The notes beneath the pieces are model-generated. The model searched no databases. It saw only the letters and a list, made by a program, of their open reading frames with translations, and was not told the DNA's origin. Of a stretch of 64,000 bases of DNA, positions 46,740 through 61,635 are shown in pieces. This DNA is from an uncultured Candidatus Rokubacteria bacterium. Lineage in GTDB: Bacteria > Methylomirabilota > Methylomirabilia > Rokubacteriales > DASRDR01. Numbering within the stretch: the stretch's first letter is position 1; every line of letters begins with the position of its first letter. The position numbers were made by a program, and so were the translations under genes. The stretch lies in assembly GCA_963749975.1 (NCBI GenBank), contig CAVVOZ010000031.1:1270-65269 (forward strand), read 5' to 3'.

Positions 46740-48230
46740 AGCTATAGAAGCGGTGTCGAGACGCTTCGTCGCCCGAACGCCAGGAGGCTCGATGGCTACA
46801 GACTGTATAGCGCAGGTGACGTTCGAATGCCAAGGGCTGTCGCAGCCCATCGTCGCGCGGTTCGACCAGGCCCACGCGAGTTCGGATGGCGGGGCCGTCT
46901 TGCTCAAAGCCCTCGACGACCACCTGGGCCTGACGCGGCGGGTGGCGGCCAGCCTGACCGACCGGAGGCAGCCCGGCAAGGTCCAGCACGCGCTGCTCGA
47001 GTTGGTGCAGCAGCGCGTCTTCGGGATCGCCTGCGGCTACGCCGACTGCAACGACAGCGCGCGGCTGGCCGAGGACCCGGTCTACAAGCTCCTGCTCGAC
47101 CGCGATCCGCTGACCGGGCCGGCCTTGGCCTCCCAGCCGACGCTCTCCCGCTTCGAGAACGGCGTGGGCTGGCACGCGCTGTATCTGGCGAGCGTCGCCC
47201 TCGCGGACCTGGTCATCGCGCAGCATCGCGCACGGCTCCAGGGGCGGGCCCGGCGGATCACGATCGATCTCGACCCGACCGACGACCCCACGCACGGCCA
47301 GCAGGAGCTCAGCTTCTTCAATGGCCACTACGACACCTGGTGCTACCTCCCACTGGTGGCGACGCTGACGTTCAACGCCGAGCCGCGGCAGTACCTGGTC
47401 GCCGCCGTGCTGCGGCCGGGCAACAGCCCGGCCAAGCGGGGCGCGCTCGGCCTGCTGACGCGCCTGTGTCGGCGGCTGCGCGCCGCCTTCCCGGGGGCCC
47501 TCCTCCGGGTCCGGCTGGACGGGGGCTTTGCCAGCCCCGAGGTCTTGGACGGCTTGGACGCCGGGGGGGTCGAGTACGTCGTGGCGATGGCCAGCAATGC
47601 GCGCCTGGTCAAGCGCAGCCGCCGCTTGATGGGGCGGGCCCGGATGCTCTCCAAGGCCAGTGGCGCGACCGAGCACCTCTACGGCGAGACTCGGTACGCG
47701 GCCCGGAAGTGGAAGCGGAAGCGACGCATCATCATGAAGGCCGAGGTCGTGCGCCATCCTGGGCGCACGCCCAAAAACAACCCGCGCTTCGTGGTCACCA
47801 ACCTCCTCGACCCGCCCGAGGCGGTCTACCACGTCTACTGCGGGCGGGGCGATATGGAGAACCGGTTGAAGGAGTTGCATCACGGCCTCGAACTGGATCG
47901 CACGAGCTGCGAACGGTTCACGGCGAACCAGTTCCGGGTGCTCCTGACGGCCGCGGCGTACATCTTGTTCCAGACCCTCCAGGCCCACGCTCAGGGGACG
48001 GCGTGTGCCGACGCCCAGGTCAGCACGCTGCGCGAGCGGCTGCTCAAGCTGGCGGCCTGGGTCGAGCGCTCGGTGCGGCGGATCGTGTTGCATCTGCCCA
48101 CCACCTATCCCTGGCTTTCCACCTGGCGCCAGATCGCCGTCGCCGTCGGCGCGGCCCCGGCGTAGTCGCCGCGCCGCCACCGCCCGCCCGACCCCCCGGG
48201 AGACGTGTCTCTCCGCGGTCCGTGGAGAAT
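46740..48230 (+). mobile_element. IS4-family insertion sequence (one transposase gene); boundaries approximate and no clean terminal inverted repeats resolved
   Basis: DDE transposase ORF with an AGGAGG RBS, inserted ~35-80 bp upstream of the ACC-deaminase-like start codon. Confidence 0.55.
46789..48165 (+). CDS. IS4-family DDE transposase (~458 aa)
   Basis: DDE_Tnp_1-like sequence with Y-x2-R-x3-E-x6-K signature ([16 protein letters not shown]). The ORF-track N-terminal extension back to 46468 is rejected. Confidence 0.8.
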
Positions 48231-48374
48231 CCGCCGTGAACGCGTGCCGCCGGGTCGCGAGCGTCCGCGCGTCGCTCTCGTGGCGGCGCGACCATTCGAT
48301 GGCCTCCCCAACGCGGCTCTCGGATGCGCCCAGGACCTTGTGTTCCACTTCACGTGCGTTCACGCATAAACGGG

Positions 48375-48785
48375 CTAGGGGGTATTCTCCTCCGGATACT
48401 CGAAGGAGTAGAGGCGCACCTCGAACCGCTGCTCCCCTCCTCGAGGCCGGAGCGGGATCGTGAACGACTCCACGTCCGACTCGGACCTCCAGCGGACCCA
48501 CGTCGGGGTCGTGAAGCTCACGATGCGGCCGGTCGCGTCGAGGCCCAGCAGCTGGAGCCAGGCGCCCGCGATGAGGTGGTTGCGCCGCTCGACGAGCCCG
48601 TCAGCCTGGACGGCGTTCGGGGTCACGCTCAAGCGCCAGTGGAAGTCGACCGGGGGCGCCTCGCTGTGGAGCGGGAAGTCGGCGGGCCGCGCGGCGGCAA
48701 CCGATGCCGCACACCCCGCCAGGAGAGCGGTGGTCACCAGCAGCGCCGCCAGACCGCGGCTCGAGATCCGGAACCCTCGAATGCT
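48375..48785 (-). CDS. Hypothetical lipoprotein (lipobox LLAGC)
   Basis: ORF 48375..48815 with signal peptide plus Cys. Confidence 0.5.
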   Translation of the reverse strand, partial: SIRGFRISSRGLAALLVTTALLAGCAASVAAARPADFPLHSEAPPVDFHWRLSVTPNAVQADGLVERRNHLIAGAWLQLLGLDATGRIVSFTTPTWVRWRSESDVESFTIPLRPRGGEQRFEVRLYSFEYPEENTP

Positions 48786-49297: not shown

Positions 49298-49880
49298 TCA
49301 GTTGCCCACGTGCAGGTTCTGGACATCGATTCCGCGCGCCCTCGAGGCCGACGCGCATCTGCCGGAATCCCGCCTGCCGGCCGCGCACTCAGCGCGTGAC
49401 GCCTTCGAAGGCCTCCACGGGCTGGCCGCCCGGTCGAGGCGCCGCGGCGTCTCCATGGTCGCAGCTGCGCGTACTCGGGTGACGAGCGCGGTCCCGATCA
49501 CGTTGACGCCGAGGCTCCGCGGCCAGTCGTCGACCGTGGCGTCCAGGCCCTTGAGCACGAAGACCGCGGCGTTGTTGACGAGGACGTCCACGCCTCCGAA
49601 GCGGGCGACGGTCTCCTCGGTCAGGCGCCGGGCGTCGGCCTCGTGCGCGATGTCGGCCCGGACGAAAGCAGCCTGGCCGCCCTGAGCCACGATGGCGGCA
49701 GCGGCCTCCACCCCCGCCAGGACATCCACGTCCGCCACAACTCTGCGCGCGCCTTCATGGGCGAACAGCTCGCACGTCGCACGCCCGATGCCGGCCGCGC
49801 CGCCGGTCACGATTGCGACCTTGCCGCTGAGGCGCTCGCCCACGAGCTTGCCCGCGATCAGGCCACGCGCCCGCCGGGGT
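49298..49880 (-). CDS. SDR-family oxidoreductase, probably frame-disrupted or truncated
   Basis: GKVAIVTGGAAGIGRA…NNAAV motifs; the catalytic YxxxK is not recovered in frame. Confidence 0.5.
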
Positions 49881-50631
49881 GGCGCCGCCAGACCTCGGGC
49901 TCGTACAGAGGGATGAAGAGCGTCGACTCCCGCTTGATGCGGGCGCATGCGCGGTGGAACTCCTCCAGGCTCTCCTGTGCACCGAGGGGCTCGCCGGCCT
50001 CCAGATTCCGATACGTGAACACGCGAGTCGCTGATCGCCACCGGGCCTCGCGCCGTGTCGACGAGGTAACACATCGACGAGCGGTGGTGCACCCCGACCC
50101 AGAAGGCGCGTAGACCAGGACGACTTCGTCCTCGTCCTCCAGCAGGTGCACCCGCTCCCATCCCTCGAACATGAGGTACTGGAGCGTGTCGCGCGGAATG
50201 CGGTGCCACCGTGAGACATGCATCGGGAATTTCTCCGCGTGAAAATCCTCGATCCAGTCCCGCTTGGACAGGCAGACCCGCGCGTTCGGAAAGAGCTGAA
50301 TGTTGGCGGTGGCGTACGACTGCAGCGGCGTGACCAGGACATGCGTCACGTCTTCGGGACGGACGCCCAGGCCCGCCAGCGCGTTCAGGGGCCGCTCGCG
50401 CTCCTCCCGGCGCATCTCGCCGCGCGCGCCGAAGGCTGCGTGCCAGCGCGCATTGAGATCCGCCAGATCCGACGGCGGCCCGGTGTTGACGATCGCCGTG
50501 ACGCCGGGGCCGCGGATGACGACCATCCAGAAGTGGAGGGTCACCCACTCGTGCCAGTGGCTCATCCAGAAGACCTCCGGACCGGCCACGTCGCACTCGC
50601 CCATCTTGAGGACCTGCAAGGAAAAGGTCAT
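49858..50631 (-). CDS. MBL-fold-like hydrolase (quorum-quenching lactonase-like?); two local frame changes
   Basis: ORF 49858..50631 with an internal segment recovered from the frame of ORF 49298..50596 (…HHRSSMCYLVDTARGPVAISDSRV…). Confidence 0.45.
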   Translation of the reverse strand: MTFSLQVLKMGECDVAGPEVFWMSHWHEWVTLHFWMVVIRGPGVTAIVNTGPPSDLADLNARWHAAFGARGEMRREERERPLNALAGLGVRPEDVTHVLVTPLQSYATANIQLFPNARVCLSKRDWIEDFHAEKFPMHVSRWHRIPRDTLQYLMFEGWERVHLLEDEDEVVLVYAPSGSGCTTARRCVTSSTRREARWRSATRVFTYRNLEAGEPLGAQESLEEFHRACARIKRESTLFIPLYEPEVWRRHPGGRVA

Positions 50632-51050
50632 GGTCTCGGGTCTCGCCTCGGCACAGCGCCCGCCACGAGAGAGCGTGCTGGCGAGCTCGTCAGCGCCACG
50701 TCCCCAGGTGGAAGCTCTTGGGACGCGTCAGATGCTGGAAGCCGAGGTGCGGGGGCGTGCATCCCTTCCCGCCCTCCTCCCCCGCGGTGATCAGCGTGAT
50801 CTCCCGGAACATCGCGCGGTCGCCGGGTCGACGAAGGTCCGGGTGCGGCTCACCGGGCGAGAGCGTACCCCGCCGCCGCCGGGCGCGGCAAGATACCCGC
50901 CGCGGGCGCCGGGCGCCATGGTGGCCGATACGCGGCCGGCGGCCTCGATGTCGCACCGCCGCCCCGGGTGTCACCGTCGATCGAGCCTCGATTGGCGGGA
51001 CCGGCAACGACCGAGTCGAGCTGTCGGGCCACCGGGCCTGGCCGGCGGGC

Positions 51051-52574
51051 TCAGAGGATCCCGCGGTCGAGCGTGCGGTAGGCGAGCGCTTCCGCGAGGT
51101 GCTCGACCGCGATCGCATCGGCCCCGGCCAGGTCGGCGATCGTCCGCGCCACCTTGAGCACGCGGTCGTGGGCGCGCGCCGAGAAGCCGAGCCGCGCCGC
51201 CGCCCGCGCGAGGAGGGCCCGGCCCGCCGGCGGCAGCGGGCAGTGGCGCAGGAGCTGGCGCGGCGTCAGCCGCGCGTTCACGCGCACGGGCCCGCGCCCG
51301 AGCCGCGCCCGCTGGCGCTCGCGCGCGCGGGTGACCCGCTGCTGGACCGCCGCCGATTCCGGCGGCGCGCCGTCGCCTGACATGGACGTCTCCGGCATCA
51401 CCGGCCCCACGTCGACGTGGAGGTCGATCCGGTCGAGCAGCGGCGCCGACAGCCGTCCCAGATAGCGCGCCCGCTCGCCCGGCGTGCACGCGCACCCGTC
51501 CACGCTCCGGCAGCCCCGCCGGCACGGGTTCATCGCCCCCACCAGCTGGACCTCCGCCGGCAGCCGCACCGCCCCGCCGACCCGGGCGATCGTCACCGCG
51601 CCGTCCTCCAGCGGCTGGCGGAGCGTGTCGAGCGCGTGCGGAGCGAACTCGGGCAGCTCGTCCAGGAACAGCACGCCCAGGTGGGCCAGGCTCACCTCGC
51701 CCGGATGCGGCACGCGGCCCCCGCCGACCAACCCGGCCGGCGAGACGGTGTGGTGGGGCGCGCGAAAGGGCCGGCGCGTCACGAGGCCCTCCGGCGGAAG
51801 CAGCCCCGCCACGCTCCAGATCCGGCTCGCCTCGATCGCCTCCGCCAGCGTGAGGGGCGGCAGGATCGTCGGCAGCCGCCGCGCGAGGAGCGTCTTGCCC
51901 GTCCCCGGCGGGCCGATCAGCAGCACGTGGTGGCCGCCGGCCGCCGCGATCTCCAGCGCGCGCTTCGCGTGCGCCTGACCGCGCACGTCGCCGAGGTCGA
52001 CGTCGTCGGGCGGCGCGACCGCCAGGAGCTGCCCCGGATCCCCACGAGTCCGGGCGATCGGATGCTCCTCGTTGAGGAACGCCGCCGCCTCCGCGAGCGA
52101 GGTCACCGGGTACACGGCGAGGGCCTCCAGCACCGAGGCCTCCGAGGTGTTGCCGGCGGCGAGAAGGCAGCCGTCGAGACCCGCATGGCTCGCCCGGAGC
52201 GCCATCGGGAGCACCCCGCGCACGGGATGGATCGCCCCGTCGAGGGCCAGCTCCCCCACCACAAGGAGGCGCTCCAGCCGCTCGGGCTTGACCGCGCCCG
52301 TCGCCGCCAGGAGGCCGAGCGCGATCGGCAGGTCGAAGCTGACGCCTTCCTTCCGCACGTCCGCCGGCGCGAGGTTGACGGTCACGCGCTCGAGGGGGAA
52401 CGCGAAGCCGGAGTTCCGGATCGCCGTGCGGACGCGCTCCCGGCTCTCACGCACCGCCGGATCCGGCAGGCCCACCGTCGCAAACGTGGGCAACCCCTGG
52501 CTCACGTCGACCTCGACGCGGACCAGCGCCGCGTCGACGCCGGCCAGGCAGGCGGAGAAGACCCGGGCGAGCAT
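51051..52574 (-). CDS. comM: YifB/ComM Mg-chelatase-like AAA+ ATPase
   Basis: 507 aa; ChlI-type GPPGTGKT Walker A, C-terminal Mg_chelatase_C. Confidence 0.92.
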   Translation of the reverse strand: MLARVFSACLAGVDAALVRVEVDVSQGLPTFATVGLPDPAVRESRERVRTAIRNSGFAFPLERVTVNLAPADVRKEGVSFDLPIALGLLAATGAVKPERLERLLVVGELALDGAIHPVRGVLPMALRASHAGLDGCLLAAGNTSEASVLEALAVYPVTSLAEAAAFLNEEHPIARTRGDPGQLLAVAPPDDVDLGDVRGQAHAKRALEIAAAGGHHVLLIGPPGTGKTLLARRLPTILPPLTLAEAIEASRIWSVAGLLPPEGLVTRRPFRAPHHTVSPAGLVGGGRVPHPGEVSLAHLGVLFLDELPEFAPHALDTLRQPLEDGAVTIARVGGAVRLPAEVQLVGAMNPCRRGCRSVDGCACTPGERARYLGRLSAPLLDRIDLHVDVGPVMPETSMSGDGAPPESAAVQQRVTRARERQRARLGRGPVRVNARLTPRQLLRHCPLPPAGRALLARAAARLGFSARAHDRVLKVARTIADLAGADAIAVEHLAEALAYRTLDRGIL

Positions 52575-52699
52575 TACCCGCCTCGCCGGAACGGCGACCT
52601 CGACGCTCGGGCCCCCGCGGTCCCCTGATCCGTCCGGCCCATGCGCGAAGGCACTGCAAGCCGCGCTCCCAGAGGTGCCGCACGGCCGGGCGTCGAGTG

Positions 52700-53058
52700 A
52701 CGGGCGGTTCGCTCAGGCGGACAGCCGGCCTGGCGGCGTCGACGTCATACAGGGCGTATCCGTCAGGATGTCCAGCCGTCGAGGCCGAAGGCGTGCTTGA
52801 GATGCCGCACGCCGGTCACCCCGCCCGCCTCGTCGAGCGACACCCCCACCACGTCGAAGCGGCAGGACTGCTCGCCGAGCCGCCGCGCCGCGAGGTAGCC
52901 GAGCGCGAGCCGGCCAAGCCGCGCGCGCTTCCGGATATCCACCCCGGCTTCGGGCGGATCGCCGGACAGGCCCCGCCGGGCCTTCACCTCGACGAACACG
53001 AGCGTCGACCCGTCGCGGGCGAGAAGGTCGATCTTGCCGAGCCGCGACCGGAGCTATC
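52700..53058. repeat. Direct repeat copy 1 (~360 bp); partner at ~59375..59720
   Basis: Direct alignment of the two regions read from the sequence. Confidence 0.8.
52763..53058 (-). pseudogene. yraN: yraN (UPF0102 endonuclease) 3' fragment; homology to the full copy starts abruptly at 53058, right after in-frame TGA TAG
   Basis: About 88% nt identity to 59434..59720; the N-terminal ~40 codons are missing. Confidence 0.7.
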
Positions 53059-53291
53059 AGAACTCGTCTCTTGTCTGAGTTCTTGGCGGTATCCGAGGTC
53101 GAACACATCTTTGACGCGGTCGCCCGCCCGTCGCGCCGCGGGCCGCATCCAGCGCTACGCCAAGCAAGGCCGCCAGCCCGCTCGCCGAACGGGCACGCAC
53201 CGCCGCGTGCGGCGACCCCTGGCGAAGAGGCCGGTGACGAAGCGCCGACTGTGTCGTACCCAACACAAGGCGCACCTGTGGGTGATCAGCG

Positions 53292-53321
53292 ACAGTTGAC
53301 TGACGTGGAGCGCCCTCCCTA
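53292..53321 (+). promoter_or_regulatory. Sigma70-type promoter TTGACT-N18-TATAGT upstream of the GT-C/discoidin gene
   Basis: Read directly; lower-GC 300-bp intergenic region; gene GTG start at 53373. Confidence 0.4.
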
Positions 53322-53372
53322 TAGTGACGCGGTGTCGGCGAGCCAAGAGCATTCGAGCAACTGAGGCGCGCA

Positions 53373-56109
53373 GTGACCAGCCGCCGTGGCGCTCGGCGAG
53401 GTCTGTGGCTACCTATCGCGATCCTCGCCGTGGCGGCGGCGGTTCGCGGTCTGCGGTTCTGGGCGGAGTTCGTGACGTTCGCGCACGTCGACGAGGCGCG
53501 CGTCGCCATCCCGGCCCTGCAGATTCTGGCGGGTACGTTTCCAGTCCACCATGTGGGGGTCGAATACCACGGCGCGGCTCCGGCCTATCCTCTCGCTGCT
53601 TGGTTCGCGCTGGTCGGCGTATCCTCGGGGAGCCTCGATGTCTTCGCCTACCTGATAGGGCTGGCGGGCGCGGCGACTGGGTACTGGCTCGCGTGTCGCC
53701 TGCTGCAGCCGCCGGCCGCGATCCTGGCCGGCCTGGCCATCGCCGTGCCGCCATTGCTCGTCGCGCGGTGGTCACTCAGTGCCAACCTGAACTATCCGCT
53801 CACGTTCCTGCTCGGCCATGTGATCTTGCTCGGTACCCATCGGCTGTACCGCGGAGACCCCATGCGGGGGACAACGATCCTGGCGGTGTCGCTCGTGGCC
53901 GGCCTCGGCTGGTGGACCAACCCCCTCATCGTCGCCTACTGCTTTCCGCTCGCCGTCCTGGCGCTCCGGAGAGGCCTCGTGTTCGAGCCGACGTTCTGGC
54001 TCGTCCCGCTGGGCGTTCTCCTCGGCGGGCTACCGGACTGGCTTTACGAGGTCACGCACTTTCCCACGATGCGGTTCATGCTCCACGAGGCGGGTTCGTT
54101 GCCGGCCCAGTCGGTCGGCGCGCGAGCAGCAGAGCTTATAGGGTATCTTGCGTTCGAGCTGCTCGGCGCAAGGCCCGAAGGGCTCCGATCCGTCCCGCCG
54201 TTGTTGGTCCAGGTCTTGGTTGTGGCGATTGGCGGATTCGCCGTTCTGCGCGCGGTCGTACGGGACCGGGACGAGTTGCGGTGGCTCGTTGGGGCGGGCG
54301 GCCAGCCGAGATCGGGACTCGGGCTCCTCTGGGCGATGGTCGTCGGCCACATCGGCCTCATGCTCTTCACGCACCGGACGCTTGGAGCGACGTACTGCGT
54401 GCCGCTCTACGCGGCGCTCTCGATCTGGACGGGGGAGGCCCTGGCCTGGCTCTGGCTCCGTCGCCGATGGCTCGGGGGCGGAGCGGTCACCGTCCTAGTC
54501 GCGTGGCACCTTTGGGCAAACTTTGGGGCATCGCTGGGGAGCCCCGCCGCGTCGGCACCGCGCTGGACACGGCTCGAGGCCACCGCACGGCCTCTCATCG
54601 ACTGGCTCCTGGCCCGCAACATCCGCCATGTTCAGTGGACCGCGGAGGACGAGAGCCTCGCATCCTTCGAGCTCACATTCCTGTCAGGATACCGGGTGAT
54701 CGCCAGTCAGCTTTGGCATGAAGCGGTGGTGCAGCACGGATGGGCAGTCGATGCGGAGGAGATGCCGCTCATCGTGACTGGGGAGCGGGAGCTTGGTCCC
54801 CTACGCGCGAGCCTTGCCGCCCTGGGACTGGGGGTTCGGGAAACCCGGGTAGGTCGCTTCGTCGTGGTCGAGCCCACGGCTGCGTCGAGGGGCTTTGCCC
54901 CGCTCGCGCCCGACGGATGGACGGTGACGGCCAGTCATCGGACGCACGAAGCCGGGAACCTGCTGGACCGGGACGTCGCCACGGGCTGGAGCACAGGGGA
55001 CCGGCAGCGGTCCGGCGAATGGTTGACTGTCGATCTGGGAAGGGCGGAAACGGTCGGGCGCGTCGACCTGCTCGCGATTGACTGGCAAGAAGTGCCCGCG
55101 GCGTTTCGGGTGGAATCGTCCCTGGACGGCCGGCAGTGGCACGAGGCGGTGACGGTCACGGAATACTGGGGTCCGCTCTTCCTGTCGGAGGGCCGGCCGT
55201 TTCTGAGAGCCCGGCACGGCCGGGTGCAGGCGATCTTTTCGCCAGTGCAGTGCCGCTTCCTGCGGATCGTTCAACTCGGCGAATCGGGCCATGCGTGGGC
55301 TGCGCGAGAGCTCTTCGTCTACCGACCCGCCGCGCCTCGTCCGTCGTCGACCGACCCTTCGCCTGAAGGGCTCGCATGGTCGCTGCACCGCGCCGGGATA
55401 CGGATGGTCTACGCTGGGCCGTGGCTCTCGGCCCGCGTCCTAGCGGGATCCCGGGGTACCCTGGGAGCGCTCGATTCGAACATCAACGTGAACTCGTACG
55501 GGCGGACGCGGCCCGAGCCGACCACGCTCGAGCGGTTCCGGCTGGAGGAGGGGCGCGGCCTCCTGCTGGGCGGGGACACCGACTTCACCGGAATACGGGA
55601 GGTGCTTGCCGGGCGCGGCGTCCCGATGCACGAGACGGGAATCGGCCCGTATCGGCTGTTGGCCTTGACCCGCCCCAAGACGACAACGCCCTCTGTCACC
55701 TCACGGGTGGCGCGCGTCCGCGGCCTTGCGGACGGATGAGGCGGGGCGGATGCTCGACGGGGACTTTCGGACACGGTGGAGCGCGGAACGCGCGGTCGAT
55801 CCTTCCGTCCACGTCACCGTCGATCTGGGTGTAGCGCGACGGATCGCAGGGGTGCGCATCCTGCCCGGCTCCCGCGAGGGCGGGCCCAGCAAGCTCACGA
55901 TCGAGGGATCGACGGATGGGGTGATCTGGATACGGCTGGAACCTCTGGAGTGGGCGGGTCAACTCTACTGGACGGGGTACGAGCTGCTCCGGAACAGCCT
56001 CCGGGAGTGGGCGGTCACGTTTCCGCCGACCACGGTGCGATACCTCCGGCTGCGCCCAGCGGCATCCGCACCAAGGTGGGACATCGAGGAAATCGCCGTG
56101 TTCGAGTGA
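53373..56109 (+). CDS. GT-C-fold (PMT/ArnT-like) membrane glycosyltransferase domain fused to two F5/8 type C (discoidin) domains (~910 aa); frame change near 55730
   Basis: ORF 53373..55739 (12+ TM N-terminus, first discoidin …WSTGDRQRSGEWLTVDLG…) plus ORF 55726..56109 (second discoidin). Confidence 0.7.
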
Positions 56110-56357
56110 CCGCCGCCACGGATCAATGATGATCGGGGCCGTGACATGGATCATCCTCACGCGTCCGAAGTGGCTCAGCACGCCGGTCCCGGTGCCCGGC
56201 TGCCCCCCTGGCGTCACGGGTACCATGACGGCGCGCCTTGCTGGTCCGCCCGGTGATCGAGGCGAACCCCGAGCGGCCACCGCGTGATGCCTCCCCAGTG
56301 TTCTCCGTCGGATCCGGTCAGCGGGCGCTCACCGTTCGCCCGAAGGTGTAGCGCACC

Positions 56358-59134
56358 GTGCGGACGGCACCTATCTTGATCGGCATGTTCGGGAGAGCCG
56401 CGCGCGACCGGCCGAATCGGGGCGCCCGATGGGCCTGGCTGCCGCTCGTCCTGCTCGTCGTGGCGGCCGGTGTCCGGGCGCTCCGCTTCGCCGCTCCGTT
56501 CCTGAAGCCGTACGAGTGGGACGAAGCCGCGACCGGCGTGTGGGGCATCCAGCTGCTCGCCGGGACGTTTCCGGTCTACTTCCTCGGCAACGAATACCAG
56601 GGCGTGCCCGCCGCCTACCCTCTCGCCGCATGGTTCGCGCTGGTCGGGTCGTCGACCCACGCATTGGACGCCTTTGCCTACGTCCTCGGGCTCGTGCTTC
56701 TCTGGACAGGCTGGCTCGTGATCCGGCGCTTCCTCCCCCCGGATGCGGCCATTGCCGCCCTCCTGGTCCTCGTCGCGCCGCCGCTCCCGTTGGCGTCGCG
56801 GAGCCTCAACGGCGGCCTGGACTACCCGACGTTGCTCGTGCTTGGCCAGCTCTTCATGCTCGGCACGCACTCGGTGTTCTACCGAAGAGTCCCGCTTCGA
56901 CGGGCTCTTCTCGGCCTCGGCCTCGTGGGGGGGCTTGGCTGCTGGAACAGCCCGCTGTTCGGCGTGTACCTGGCGCCATTCGTGTGGCTCGCGCTCCGAC
57001 ACGGCCTGGCCTGGCGGCGCGAGGTCGCCTGGTTCGCGGGGGGTGCGCTTCTCGGGAGCCTCCCAACAGCGGTATACGAGGCCGTGTACTTTCCGTCCAC
57101 GCGTTTCATCGTCCATGCGGGAGGGAGCATCCCCGTCGATCCGGTTCTCGTGCGCGCGGCGACGGTGTTCGGCACGCACGTCCCCGATCTGCTCGGCGTT
57201 CCGGAGTTCGGATCGCTCCAATCGAGCACGCTGGCCGTATCCGCATCGCTGGTCCTCCTCGGCATTGCCGTCGCGCTCTGCTGGGACCGTGCCGAGCTCC
57301 GGTGGCTCCTGGCGCTCGGCGACGCTCGAGGCTCGGGTCGCGTCATCCTGTGGATCGTGCTGGTCAGCAACCTGGTCGTGGTGATCGCGGCCCCGCAGGG
57401 CGCGGTCGGAAGCCGCTACCTCCACCCGCTCTACGCGGTGCTACCCGCCTTCGCCGGCATTGCGCTCGCGTGGCTGTGGCGCCGCCGCCGCTCCATCGCG
57501 GTCATCGTGGCTGGCGCGCTGATCGGCATCCATGCGCTGGCACAACTGGACGCATGGGCCGGGCGGCACCCCTTCCGCCCAATGGCGGTGGAGCCCGACC
57601 ACGCGCGCGCTCGAGCCGCTGCTGGTCTGGCTCGAGTCGCGCGGCATCGACCATGCGTACTGGGCGTTCCGCGGCCTGCCCCCCAGCTACGAGATGACCT
57701 ACCTCGCCGCAGGGCGCGTAGTCTTCGCGGACGCGTGGCGTGAGCTGGCGCTGCCCTATGCCCGCGAGGTCGATGCGAGCAAGGCGCCACCGTTCGTCGC
57801 CCCGGATGGGGCCGATGAGGTCGACGAACTCCGAGACACGCTTCCGGCACTCGGCCTCGAGGTTCGCGAGACGCGGGTCGGCCGGTACGCCGTCTTCGAA
57901 ACCAGCGCCCGGGGCCGATCCGGGTTCGTGGCCCTGCCTCCCGACGGCTGGCGCGTGAGCGCCGAGCCCGAACGGCCCCGCGATCACGAGCCTCACCGAT
58001 CGCGACGTAGCGACCGGCTGGTCGACCGGTCGCGGCCAGCAGCCCGGCCAGCAGATCGTCATCGATCTCGGGCGGGACGCGCTCGTCACGCGGGTCGATC
58101 TGCTCGTGGTCGACTGGCAGGAAGTCCCGGCCGGATTCCGCATCGATGTATCACGGGACGGCGAACGATGGGAGTCGGTCCTTACGGTGCCGCGCTACTG
58201 GGGTCCTCTGTTCTTCTCCGAACACCACGCGATGCTCAAGGTTCGGCACGGCCGCGTGCAGGCAGTGTTTCCGCCCACCACGACGCGGTGGCTCCGGATC
58301 GTGCAGACCGGGACGGTTTCCTACCGCTCGTGGAAGGCGCGCGAGCTCTTCGTCTACGCCCCAGGGCCGCCACCGAGCGATGACGTGCCGCCAATCGAGC
58401 CGCTGTTCCGGGATCGTCGTCCCGAGTTCGTCTACACCGGTCCCTGGCTCGCGGCGCGGCTCCACACGGAGCTCGGCGACCGAGTCCGGGTCCCCGAATC
58501 CAACTACTTCACCAACAACAACGGCCACCACCTGCCGGATCCCCGTTGGCTGGAACCGCTCCGGATCGAACCGGGGCGGGTGATCCTGCTGGGCCAGGAC
58601 GCGGACGCGGCTGGGGTCAGGGCCATGCTCGCGGCCCGCGGTGTGCCGGTGGACACGCGAGTCGATGGACCCTATCAGCTGCTGACTTTCAAGACCACGG
58701 AGAAGGCTCGCCTCCTCGACCGGGCTGGATGGCGGGCCACGGCCAGCGTCGATGCCGCCAACGCCCAGCGCGCGATCGACGGAAAGGCAGGGACGCACTG
58801 GATATCCGGTGGCCCGGCATCGCCGCAAGACCATCTCACAGTCGACCTGGGACGCATCCGAGAGATCTCCGGGATCCGCCTCACCCCTGGCTCGCAGGCG
58901 GGAGGACCGCTGGCGCTCGGCCTCGAGGGCTCGGACGACGGAATCACCTGGACCGCGCTCGGGCCGCCGACGTGGGCCGGGGCTCTCTACTGGACCGGGT
59001 CCGAGCTCCTGCGGAACAGCGAAGAGGGCTGGTCGTTCGTATTCCCGGCAGCACGCGTGCGGATCCTCCGGATCCGTCCCTCGCGTCCGTCGCCGACGCC
59101 CTGGATCGTGGCCGAGCTCGAGTGCTTCGACTGA
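56358..59134 (+). CDS. Paralog of 53373..56109 with the same GT-C + 2x discoidin architecture; frame changes near 57600 and 58100
   Basis: ORFs 56358..57743, 57532..58383 and 58106..59134 align colinearly to the upstream paralog. Confidence 0.65.
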
Positions 59135-59374
59135 CCGGAACGATGACCACGCCGCGACCCGCCCCACCGGGACAGCCGCCCGGCGTGATCACCTTCAGTG
59201 CCCGCTTCACGCCCGCGTGACACCGCATGTCCGCGAGATCGAGGTCGTCGGACCTCCCCGCCCGGCCCAGAACCAGAGGCGAAGCCCGGACCGGATCGTC
59301 TCGGGACGTCCGGCCGGCGGCGCCGCCGGGCGCTCGGCGTGCCCGCGAAACAGTCGCGGCCGGGGCGCCGAGTT

Positions 59375-59720
59375 GCGGGCGGTTCGCTCGGGCGGGCGGC
59401 CCGACCGCGTCAACGTCATACGGGGCGTATCCGTCAGGACGTCCAGCCGTCGAGGTCGAAGGCGTGCTTGAGGTGCCGCACGCCGGTCACCCGGCCCGCC
59501 TCGTCGAGCGACACCCCCACCACGTCGAAGCGGCAGGACTGCTCGCCGAGCCGCCGCGCCGCGAGGTAGCCGAGCGCGAGCCGGACGAGCCGCGCACGCT
59601 TCCGGCCATCCACCGCGGCCTCGGGCGGATCGCCCGACAGGCCGCGCCGTGATTTCACCTCGATGAAGACCAGCGTGGCGCCGTCTCGGGCCAGGAGGTC
59701 GATCTCGCCCAGCCGCGACC
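59375..59720. repeat. Direct repeat copy 2 (within full-length yraN and its 3' flank)
   Basis: See 52700..53058. Confidence 0.8.
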
Positions 59721-59838
59721 GGAGGTTCCGCGCGAGGATGACGAGACCGCGCCGCTTGAGATAGCGCACGGCCGCGGCTTCCCCCGCCTGGCCGACGGAC
59801 CGTGTCGTGGCGCGGGGCGGATCGCGCTGCCACCGCAT
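59434..59838 (-). CDS. yraN: YraN-family (UPF0102) endonuclease, full length
   Basis: ORF 59434..59847; AAVRYLKRRGLVILARNLRSRLGEIDLLARDG…. Confidence 0.8.
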   Translation of the reverse strand: MRWQRDPPRATTRSVGQAGEAAAVRYLKRRGLVILARNLRSRLGEIDLLARDGATLVFIEVKSRRGLSGDPPEAAVDGRKRARLVRLALGYLAARRLGEQSCRFDVVGVSLDEAGRVTGVRHLKHAFDLDGWTS

Positions 59839-59954
59839 GCCGGTCACCGTGCAAGGACCCGACCAGGCGGCAAGCCCGCCGGATGTCGAGCCGGCACTCG
59901 CGGGCGCTCATCGCGGGCGGCTGCCCGCGGATGCGCGTCGTGTCCGGGCGGTCA

Positions 59955-60655
59955 GCGCCGGCTCGCGCCCTCCAGGATCCGCACCATCTCGGCGTAGCCG
60001 CGCGCCCGGGCGTGGGCGAGCGGCGTGACGCCCTGGCGGTCGGCGAGATCGATGGCGGCCCGCGCCTCGACGAGGAGGCGCGCGACGGCCACGTGGCGCG
60101 GCCCGCCGTCTCCGAGGATCACCGCCTCGAGGAGGGCCGTCCAGCCGAGGTTGTTGACGTGGTCGAGCGGGGCGCCGGCCGTCGACGAGGACCCGCACCA
60201 CCTCCACGTGGCCGAGATGCGCCGCCGCGATGAGGGCCGTGCCGTCGTAGGGGCTCGTGACGGTGCGCGGGCTCGCGCCGAGCGCGAGGGCAAGCTCGCA
60301 GCGTCGCCACGTCGTCACGCACCGCCGCGATCGTGACGACGTCGTAGCGCTGCGCGTCGAGGGCATCGGGGTCCGCGCCGCCAGCCACCAGGGCCCGCAT
60401 CGCCTCGGCCTGCGCGGCGAACGCGGCGACGTGAAGCGGCGTGCGTCCGTGGCCGTCCCGCGCGCCAGGATCCGCGCCGGTCGCGAGGAGCCGGCGGATC
60501 TCGATCGCGTCGCCGCGGGCCGCCGCCCCGTGGAGCCCCGTGTACGCGCGCATCTCGTCCGGGCCGGGCGGCACCTGAGGGAAGCCGGCGCGAGGCGCGA
60601 GCAGCGCCACGAGGCCGGCCAGGAGCAGCCCGACGAGACGGCTCACGGCCCGGAC
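59955..60655 (-). CDS. Secreted ankyrin-repeat protein; frame changes near 60180 and 60300
   Basis: Signal peptide VSRLVGLLLAGLVALLAP; ANK repeats spread over ORFs 60119..60994, 59908..60366 and 59952..60293. Confidence 0.6.
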
Positions 60656-60675: not shown

Positions 60676-61635
60676 TCAGGCCGGTTCCGGCGAGGGCAGC
60701 TCCACGCCCTCGAGGGGATCCGACGCCGGGTGGTAGTACATCCACTCGGCGGCGCCCTCGGCGACCGTGCGGTTGAGCGCGCGCGCCTGGCGCTCGCCCA
60801 GGTCGCGCACGATCTCGCCGGCCGGCGCGCGGCGCGCGACGATCAGGGCGTGGCGGGCATCGAGCGGGACCCGCACCTCGTGGGCGGATCCGAGCCCCAC
60901 CTGGTAGAGCTTCGCGGCGGCCGACGGCGCCCAGAGCACGACGGGCGTGTCGCTGGTCAGGAGCACCGGTGCCGGAAAGCGGACGACCTGCCACGTGCGG
61001 GCCGCCAGCTGACGCGCGAGCGCCGGCATCGACGCCAGCGACCGCCCGACCGGCGGTCGGCCCGGGAGCATCACGTCCGGCGCACTCGCGCCGCCGACTG
61101 CCTCCGGCTTGCGCGCCGCCCGGGCCTTCGGGGCAGCCGGGCCTTCCATGCCCGGGCTCTCGGGCTCGTCCACTTCGGCTTCCTCAGGGGCCTCCTCAGG
61201 GGCCTCCTCCGCCACCTCGGCCTCCTCCTCGTCTTCCTCGGACTCCTCGATGGTCGAGACGATGAGCTGGCCGACGAGGGTCGCCATCCGCCCGGCCTCG
61301 GCCCGGTGATACCGCCCGAGGAGGAGCTGCGCGGCGAGGACGAGGGCGAGGCTCGCCCGATCGGACTCGCGTGGCGGGAACGCGCCGGCCGTGATCCGCT
61401 GGACGGCCTCGGCCCCCCGTGCCTCCACCTCGGCGAGGAGGCGCGCGAGCGCCGGGGCATCGGTCCGGTCGGCCACGAGCGCATAGCGCCCGAGCTCCGC
61501 CACGGCGGCGTCCACCAGGACCAGCCGCCGGCGGGTGCGGTCCCGCCGCTCCGCGATGAGCTGGCCGGTGGCGTCGGCGAACCCCGCGAGGAGGAAGCGG
61601 GGGACGAGCGGGCGCTCGAGCGCGATCGGGCTCAC
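60676..61635 (-). CDS. Hypothetical protein with an acidic low-complexity insert (EESEEDEEEAEVAEEAPEEAPEEAEVDEPE)
   Basis: ORF 60676..61713; a likely GTG start just after the rnhB stop. Confidence 0.45.
   Translation of the reverse strand: MSPIALERPLVPRFLLAGFADATGQLIAERRDRTRRRLVLVDAAVAELGRYALVADRTDAPALARLLAEVEARGAEAVQRITAGAFPPRESDRASLALVLAAQLLLGRYHRAEAGRMATLVGQLIVSTIEESEEDEEEAEVAEEAPEEAPEEAEVDEPESPGMEGPAAPKARAARKPEAVGGASAPDVMLPGRPPVGRSLASMPALARQLAARTWQVVRFPAPVLLTSDTPVVLWAPSAAAKLYQVGLGSAHEVRVPLDARHALIVARRAPAGEIVRDLGERQARALNRTVAEGAAEWMYYHPASDPLEGVELPSPEPA

Follow-up and report, generated by a model that had tools for sequence, protein, structure and literature searches.

The yraN-comM interval of the window

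The subject of this analysis is the interval between yraN and comM in a 64,000-nt stretch of DNA (contig CAVVOZ010000031.1; hereafter the window) from an uncultured Candidatus Rokubacteria bacterium of soil, in which a 6.3-kb insert is bracketed by two direct copies of the 3' part of yraN, both on the minus strand (Table 1). In the following, labels of the form L### denote related genomic loci or assemblies and labels of the form P#### denote related proteins. An earlier note on this DNA had described an intact yraN, an insert and a partial 3' copy of the same gene beside comM, and our BLASTN analysis confirmed both this layout and the repeat itself: the two copies aligned with 88.7% identity over 372 columns, with 37 mismatches, 5 gap columns and an E-value of 2e-138, and within them an ungapped 300-nt pair (52718-53017 and 59389-59688) was 90% identical, a similarity beyond chance. 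The repeat extends approximately 80 nt past the yraN stop codon.

The right-hand copy belongs to a full-length YraN, matching the Pfam profile PF02021 (UPF0102) from position 1 to 80 of 80 (59434-59847; E 1.9e-25); an exact look-up of the window's own YraN returned no record. Because the match of the left-hand copy (52766-53053) is confined to profile positions 22-80 of 80 (E 4.9e-14), this copy is a 5'-truncated YraN fragment, consisting of codons 38-134 plus the stop codon and reading LRSRLGKIDLL...DGWTS*. Its homology to yraN begins at codon 38 and is directly preceded by an in-frame TGA TAG (53054-53059), in agreement with the abrupt, stop-marked boundary described earlier. The first possible start in this copy is an internal GTG, and its conserved GEIDL motif carries an E->K change.

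The 6.3 kb between the repeat copies are made up of two plus-strand genes and non-coding leftovers of 314, 248 and 230 nt. Open reading frames (ORFs) and Pfam matches agree with the earlier description of two GT-C/discoidin genes and neither an integrase nor a transposase, and since the two genes fill the insert apart from these leftovers, there is no room for an integrase. Set against the empty site of L181, the junction between the insert and the yraN side lies at approximately 59357-59365.

Table 1. Features of the yraN-comM region, with positions in the window
Feature	Position	Strand	Description	Basis
comM	51051..52574	-	507 aa; ChlI, Mg_chelatase and Mg_chelatase_C domains	Pfam and synteny
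Native yraN-comM spacer	52575..52762	-	~190 nt	Motif search, alignment
Repeat copy 1	52683..53053	-	Truncated yraN (52763-53053) and first ~80 nt of spacer	
Left junction and non-coding segment	53054..53372		In-frame stops, hairpin, promoter-like site	
Cargo gene 1	53373..56109	+	GT-C-fold membrane glycosyltransferase (predicted), two F5/8C (CBM32) domains	
Cargo gene 2	56358..59134	+	Paralogue of gene 1, 43% identical	
Tentative relics	59175..59298	-	One reading frame: YraN residues ~5-19-like, then ComM residues ~187-214-like	
Repeat copy 2	59357..59724	-	3' 97 codons of intact yraN and ~80 nt of spacer-like sequence	BLASTN
Intact yraN	59434..59838	-	134 codons; full-length UPF0102; product identical to P0001	

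Contents and breakpoints of the interval in relatives

Comparison with related genomes, which the earlier note had proposed as a check, resulted in the identification of a single yraN, a spacer of approximately 190 nt and comM in L081-L083, L084-L086 and L181, with L081-L083 being 92-93% identical to the window at the DNA level on both sides. Because yraN is directly followed by comM in these relatives, the block is an insertion, as had been claimed. The same insert with the same truncated copy was found in L087 and L089, which are collinear with the window at 92.7% and 98.6% overall, respectively; L087 comes from a different sample than the window and is approximately 2-7% divergent.

The interval of the window, L087 and L089 contains gene 2 and gene 1, and that of L088 (a GenBank/NCBI assembly) contains gene 1 alone, next to a truncated yraN copy that is shorter and frameshifted by a 2-nt deletion. 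In L182 a gene 1-like gene is accompanied by a gene for a sulfatase-domain protein, and no truncated yraN is present. A 6-kb cargo encoding a UDP-sugar dehydrogenase, an epimerase, a methyltransferase, a GT2 and a PMT_2 protein occupies the interval of L091 (YraN 82% identical), which has its own decayed partial yraN, beginning at codon 63 and having lost the stop codon. L176-L180 carry 8.8 kb of unrelated genes and no partial copy, and L175 has no comM within approximately 9 kb downstream. Counting the empty site, the interval was therefore found in six states, with five different contents.

The yraN-side breakpoints fall exactly at the stop codon (L176-L180), at +18 (L175), at approximately +80 (window, L088 and L182) and at approximately +150 (L091, the reach of its duplication), while the truncated copy starts at codon 38 in the window and at codon 63 in L091, is further deleted in L088 and is absent from L182 and L176. 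Conserved flanks with several alternative contents among relatives are what defines a variable locus, and the yraN-comM interval is such a locus, with lineage-specific breakpoints; because these breakpoints differ between lineages, it does not act as a single attachment site. The relics of L088 (the 2-nt deletion plus many further changes) and of L091 (no stop codon) both behave as pseudogenes, and the joints of the secondary deletions in L088 show just 2-3 nt of microhomology.

Cargo and composition of the insert

The cargo proteins form a family of approximately 911-924 aa with two F5/8C (CBM32) domains. An AlphaFold model of P0121, the intact 911-aa orthologue of gene 1 in L088, had a mean predicted local distance difference test score (pLDDT) of 84.5 and a predicted template modelling score (pTM) of 0.81. 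Foldseek searches with this model matched AftD (6w98) with an E-value of 8e-12, as well as AglB and OST, and comparison with ArnT (5f15/5ezm) gave a template modelling (TM) score of 0.59-0.61 normalised to the target at a root-mean-square deviation of 6 Å. By its modelled multi-helix membrane GT-C fold, the cargo is thus predicted to consist of GT-C-fold glycosyltransferases; its Pfam PMT_2 match falls under the gathering cut-off. The cargo resembles AftD/ArnT-type GT-C glycosyltransferases with carbohydrate-binding modules in predicted fold and in its two CBM32/F5-8C domains, but it shares just 12-16% sequence identity with the AftD and ArnT structures, and unlike those enzymes the two genes of the window are interrupted by frameshifts, which are possibly sequencing errors.

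Gene 1 reads as two ORFs (53373-55739 and 55726-56109) owing to a +1 frameshift near 55692 that is common to the window and L089. Single-base insertions at 57536 and 57965 break gene 2 into three frames; in L089 the gene is intact (924 aa) and lacks both insertions, though the surrounding 2 kb are otherwise identical. The frameshifts at 55692, 57536 and 57965 may reflect either real recent inactivation or long-read consensus errors, the latter because the related assemblies hold many indel errors. The unit 56130-59287 is missing from L088 and L182.

Homologues of the cargo (approximately 55% identity) occur at other loci, either as solitary genes or within glycan gene clusters but in no case next to yraN, i.e., in ordinary, non-mobile chromosomal contexts. 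The insert has a guanine-plus-cytosine (GC) content of 0.694, close to the 0.706 of the whole window (standard deviation 0.03 in 1-kb windows), and the compositional outliers are the GC-rich flanks (comM, 0.766; right flank, 0.756). The lower GC attributed to the insert therefore held relative to these flanks but not relative to the window, and the proposed check for compositional deviation revealed none for the insert, with the flanks being the unusual part; a foreign origin on the basis of GC or codon deviation was rejected. These results also speak against the suggestion that the insert is a decayed mobile island.

In the non-coding left part, the hairpin AGAACTC-N11-GAGTTCT (53059-53083) and a promoter-like TTGACT-18-TATAGT on the plus strand upstream of gene 1 (53296-53325) are both present as previously noted, but the predicted folding of the hairpin did not surpass that of shuffled sequence (z -0.7 and -0.15). 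The segment 53059-53259 is shared with the closest relatives, L087 and L089, only. Rfam and tRNA scans of the region found nothing. Between the stop codon of gene 2 and repeat copy 2, two minus-strand relics, RDDPVRASPLVLGRAG (YraN-like) followed by DDLDLADMRCHAGVKRALKVITPGG (ComM-like), were matched by BLASTN at 81% over 43 nt and 74-77% over 61-77 nt, with none of 200 shuffles scoring as well, while a default BLASTX of the whole insert did not recover them. Tentatively, they may hint at older rearrangements of the same backbone.

Allelic history of the two yraN copies

The differences between the repeat copies are clustered: the first 150 nt of the repeat account for 23 of them, the following 141 nt, which include a run of approximately 90 nt without any difference, account for 4, and the spacer part shows 10 differences and a 4-5-nt indel. 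When the copies were polarised against six outgroup sequences, the truncated copy had the outgroup state in 15 of the 23 differences of the first 150 nt, with the intact gene derived, and 11 of these 15 derived changes were at third codon positions. The truncated copy was derived in 5 of the 23, one of them being the E->K change in the GEIDL motif, and the ratio of nonsynonymous to synonymous divergence (dN/dS) between the copies was approximately 0.2. Because the differences are asymmetric and mostly synonymous, with a dN/dS of this size, they indicate that the copies descend from two alleles, both still functional when they diverged, rather than from decay of one copy. The same concentration, asymmetry and synonymous character are at odds with the earlier reading of the ~12% divergence as the mark of an old event.

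The allele of the intact gene (FIEVK type) is also found in L088, L182 and the empty-site L181, and the population contains mixed alleles (P0186 and P0177). A far-outlier origin of the 3' allele of the intact gene was considered and rejected, its synonymous divergence (dS) to L081 and L084 being 0.51-0.55 compared to 0.48 between L081 and L084. Likewise, the near-identity of the truncated copy between the window and L087 was rejected as a sign of constraint, as these genomes differ by 0-4% over most of the flanks.

Against these flanks, the divergence between the window and L087 rises to 12-21% for comM and reaches as much as 25% inside the cargo, which indicates allelic replacement by recombination. 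The jumps are located at 51198-52197 (comM) and 54600-57800 (cargo). Furthermore, the window is closest to L081 right of 60500 and closest to L181/L182 at 59300-60500 and in comM. By these sequence patterns, recombination is pervasive at the yraN-comM locus.

Origin of the partial copy

With slightly better than even confidence, we consider the yraN-comM interval of this Rokubacteria/Methylomirabilota group to be a strain-variable envelope-glycosylation locus, in which the partial yraN is a passive relic of flank-anchored recombination that involved neither an integrase nor an attachment (att) site. The comparison of alleles and junctions suggests a route and a direction of transfer in which DNA of two different relatives would have been joined at one end through a homologous stretch of a conserved flank, either the rplS...yraN operon or comM, and at the other end illegitimately within yraN at codon 38, leaving a partial second copy. 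A linear fragment could have entered by homology-facilitated illegitimate recombination; an equivalent topology would result if a circle with a 3' piece of yraN had integrated by a single homologous crossover of the Campbell type, and no dedicated integrase or att site would take part in either. Later gene conversion or recombination may have homogenised the middle of the repeat, giving the identical stretch, and the L088 form would have followed through later deletions at 2-3-nt microhomologies. The 370-bp direct repeats might now permit RecA-dependent loss of the block, restoring a single yraN, and the partial copy most likely has no function of its own.

Several observations weigh against this explanation. 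The related assemblies used are mostly long-read, with frameshift errors. The partial duplication of the yraN 3' end arose independently in two lineages, the window and L091, which could instead reflect a preferred site or a single ancient duplication with eroded edges. The allele asymmetry is based on approximately 23 sites and could stem from later overwriting of the truncated copy by insert-free relatives. Additionally, the linkage between allele and insert is not strict, because the derived yraN allele of the filled genomes also occurs in L181, whose site is empty. An integrase-driven element, an in-situ duplication, selection on a comM leader and an assembly artefact were nevertheless each judged less likely than a recombination scar.

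The alternative that survives best, although we regard it as unlikely, is an origin in situ, either because a 370-bp piece covering the yraN 3' end and the spacer was duplicated in tandem and the genes were later inserted between its copies, or because fill-in followed an insertion at a long staggered break. Lineage-specific states (VTGVRHLKHAF) are present in both copies and not in L081 or L084, in the spacer part the two L091 copies are closer to each other than to any other sequence, and L084, L087 and L176 have genes for Ku and LigD a few kb upstream. However, decay of a duplicate predicts the opposite of the 15 derived changes in the functional gene compared to 5 in the pseudogene over the first 150 nt, mostly synonymous, and a dN/dS of approximately 0.5 or more rather than 0.2; moreover, gene conversion can explain the common states, and the ~90-nt identical run suggests that conversion took place.

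Less probable still is the model closest to the earlier note, in which a site-specific integrative element inserted itself into the 3' part of yraN, supplied that gene with a new 3' end and has since lost the integrase. The layout fits, and relatives have empty sites while the target gene is still intact; the derived changes in the 3' part of the intact gene are mostly synonymous while the displaced copy resembles the relatives; and L091 represents a second lineage with the same architecture and other cargo. Yet neither an integrase nor a transposase was found in the inserts of the window, L091, L182 or L088, and the recombinase gene that such an element should have beside one att site is missing. 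The att-like repeats that had been proposed at both junctions were likewise absent: there is no shared identical core reused by independent insertions, and the junction positions vary by lineage. L182 has the +80 junction without a displaced copy, the supposed replacement allele occurs at the empty site of L181, the GC content of the insert equals the window mean, and the cargo homologues sit in non-mobile chromosomal contexts. Nor does the insert resemble a transposon or insertion sequence (IS), since apart from one chance 9-mer its ends share no inverted or direct repeat of at least 9 nt, and there are no terminal inverted repeats or common end sequences. A literature search found no report of yraN as an integration site. 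Taken together, these results argue against the footprint of an element that targets the yraN 3' end.

We give a low probability to the view that selection keeps the truncated copy as a promoter or leader for a comM cut off from the yraN operon. The native spacer, which aligns end to end with the spacers of insert-free relatives, has at its yraN end a conserved palindrome, GGATACGCCCTGTAT, and the palindromic motif GACGGATACGCCC(C/T)GTATGACG lies directly 3' of the yraN stop codon on the minus strand of both repeat copies (52743-52764 and 59414-59435), with two occurrences in the window compared to zero expected, and is identical in seven relatives. Spacer and invariant palindrome always remain approximately 185 nt upstream of comM, even with yraN 6-9 kb away (8.8 kb in L176), and the palindrome may act as a control element of comM. 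The sequence that remains with comM nevertheless begins at the yraN stop codon, with L176 and L182 retaining zero yraN coding sequence, and L088 and L091 show decay of the coding part. The minus strand at 52400-53400 yielded no promoter-like site, and consensus folding of the spacer gave no covariation in support of an RNA structure.

A further reading, whose chances we consider slimmer again, holds that the yraN end with its palindrome GGATACGCCCCGTAT is a preferred entry site for a family of recombinase-less glycosylation cassettes in Rokubacteria and that the partial yraN is the functional handle of such a mobile cassette; the cassettes would then pass from strain to strain as circles, with RecA or a trans-acting host recombinase excising and re-integrating them via the yraN-derived repeat. 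The many single-base indels of the related long-read assemblies might suggest that the duplication stems from faulty metagenome assembly, either through a chimeric join or through a collapsed repeat, but this is for practical purposes refuted because four independent assemblies carry the structure, i.e., the window, L087, L089 and, in its one-gene form, L088.

Comparison with known systems

O-antigen and capsule loci are hotspots of gene gain and loss between core genes that are exchanged by recombination in conserved flanks. The locus described here is like them in its conserved flanks (the rpsP...yraN row and comM), its variable contents including the empty state, its cargo rich in envelope-glycan genes, its mosaic divergence and its lack of a recombinase, and unlike them in being small (0-9 kb), in having imprecise junctions with partial copies of a flank gene, and in its host, an uncultivated Methylomirabilota/Rokubacteria lineage. 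Homology-facilitated illegitimate recombination is described as having one homologous and one illegitimate end (PMC3240628). Insertion beside a homologous anchor, an anchor duplicated in part without a site-specific recombinase, and the possibility of differing alleles are shared with this and with Campbell-type recombination, whereas the event at yraN, unlike observed cases, is deduced from comparative sequence.

Resemblance to elements that replace the 3' end of icd or trmE extends to the intact target gene, the cargo and the displaced 3' fragment as a direct repeat. Phage 21/e14 integrates at icd. The SGI1 family is described as integrating at trmE (PMC8409611). In contrast to such elements, there is here no integrase, conserved core or compositional signal, the breakpoints vary and the cargo is ordinary chromosomal material.

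Variable loci with partial gene duplications at their borders are already well known; the present one adds an example from a phylum that has received little study. It is an ordinary case, of modest value for the population genomics of that phylum. It implies that uncultivated Rokubacteria vary envelope-glycosylation genes between close populations at a fixed position beside comM. It also carries a caution: since the relatives here point to flank-anchored recombination at a variable locus, the layout of intact gene, insert and partial 3' copy is by itself no proof of an integrase-driven island.

Neighbouring genes and further observations

The genes right of copy 2 are ank, DUF4238, rnhB, rplS and trmD, yraN being the last gene of a conserved rpsP-rimM-trmD-rplS-rnhB-DUF4238-ank-yraN row whose order is common to L081, L084-L087, L176 and L181. 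In the relatives, the genes further along and beyond this row are rimM, rpsP, ffh, a PMT_2 gene, Ku and LigD; every relative examined has the genes for LigD and Ku (non-homologous end joining) and the PMT_2-type GT-C gene immediately upstream of the ffh-rpsP...yraN row, in regions corresponding to sequence outside the window (L084:1-2091, L087:1-2104 and L176:1-1852). The gene directly downstream of yraN is comM in L081-L086 and L181.

The YraN homologues carry the Methylomirabilota/Rokubacteria name, and ComM was best matched, in the genome collection, by metagenome-assembled genomes (MAGs) of Rokubacteria; these matches were just 62-64% identical, with no close relatives among them. A metagenome scan with YraN returned chiefly distant homologues, with L091 being the sole informative one.

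Downstream of comM, 49433-51042 and 46740-48375 are without counterpart in L084/L085. The former, which has a lower GC content (0.66-0.70), overlaps a 432-aa ORF (49298-50596, minus strand) with a short-chain dehydrogenase domain in its C-terminal half only. Within the DUF4238 coding region, imperfect 12-nt units (GGCCTCCTCAGG-like) occur at 61177-61248 on the minus strand, where the alignment of the window and L087 contains 13 gap columns. Outside Rokubacteria, the yraN-comM gap is usually 12-23 nt (L024, L109, L123 and others); in the Thermoleophilia MAG L061 (5293-11515) the two genes are 4.3 kb apart, and the interval may thus be interrupted in other phyla too.

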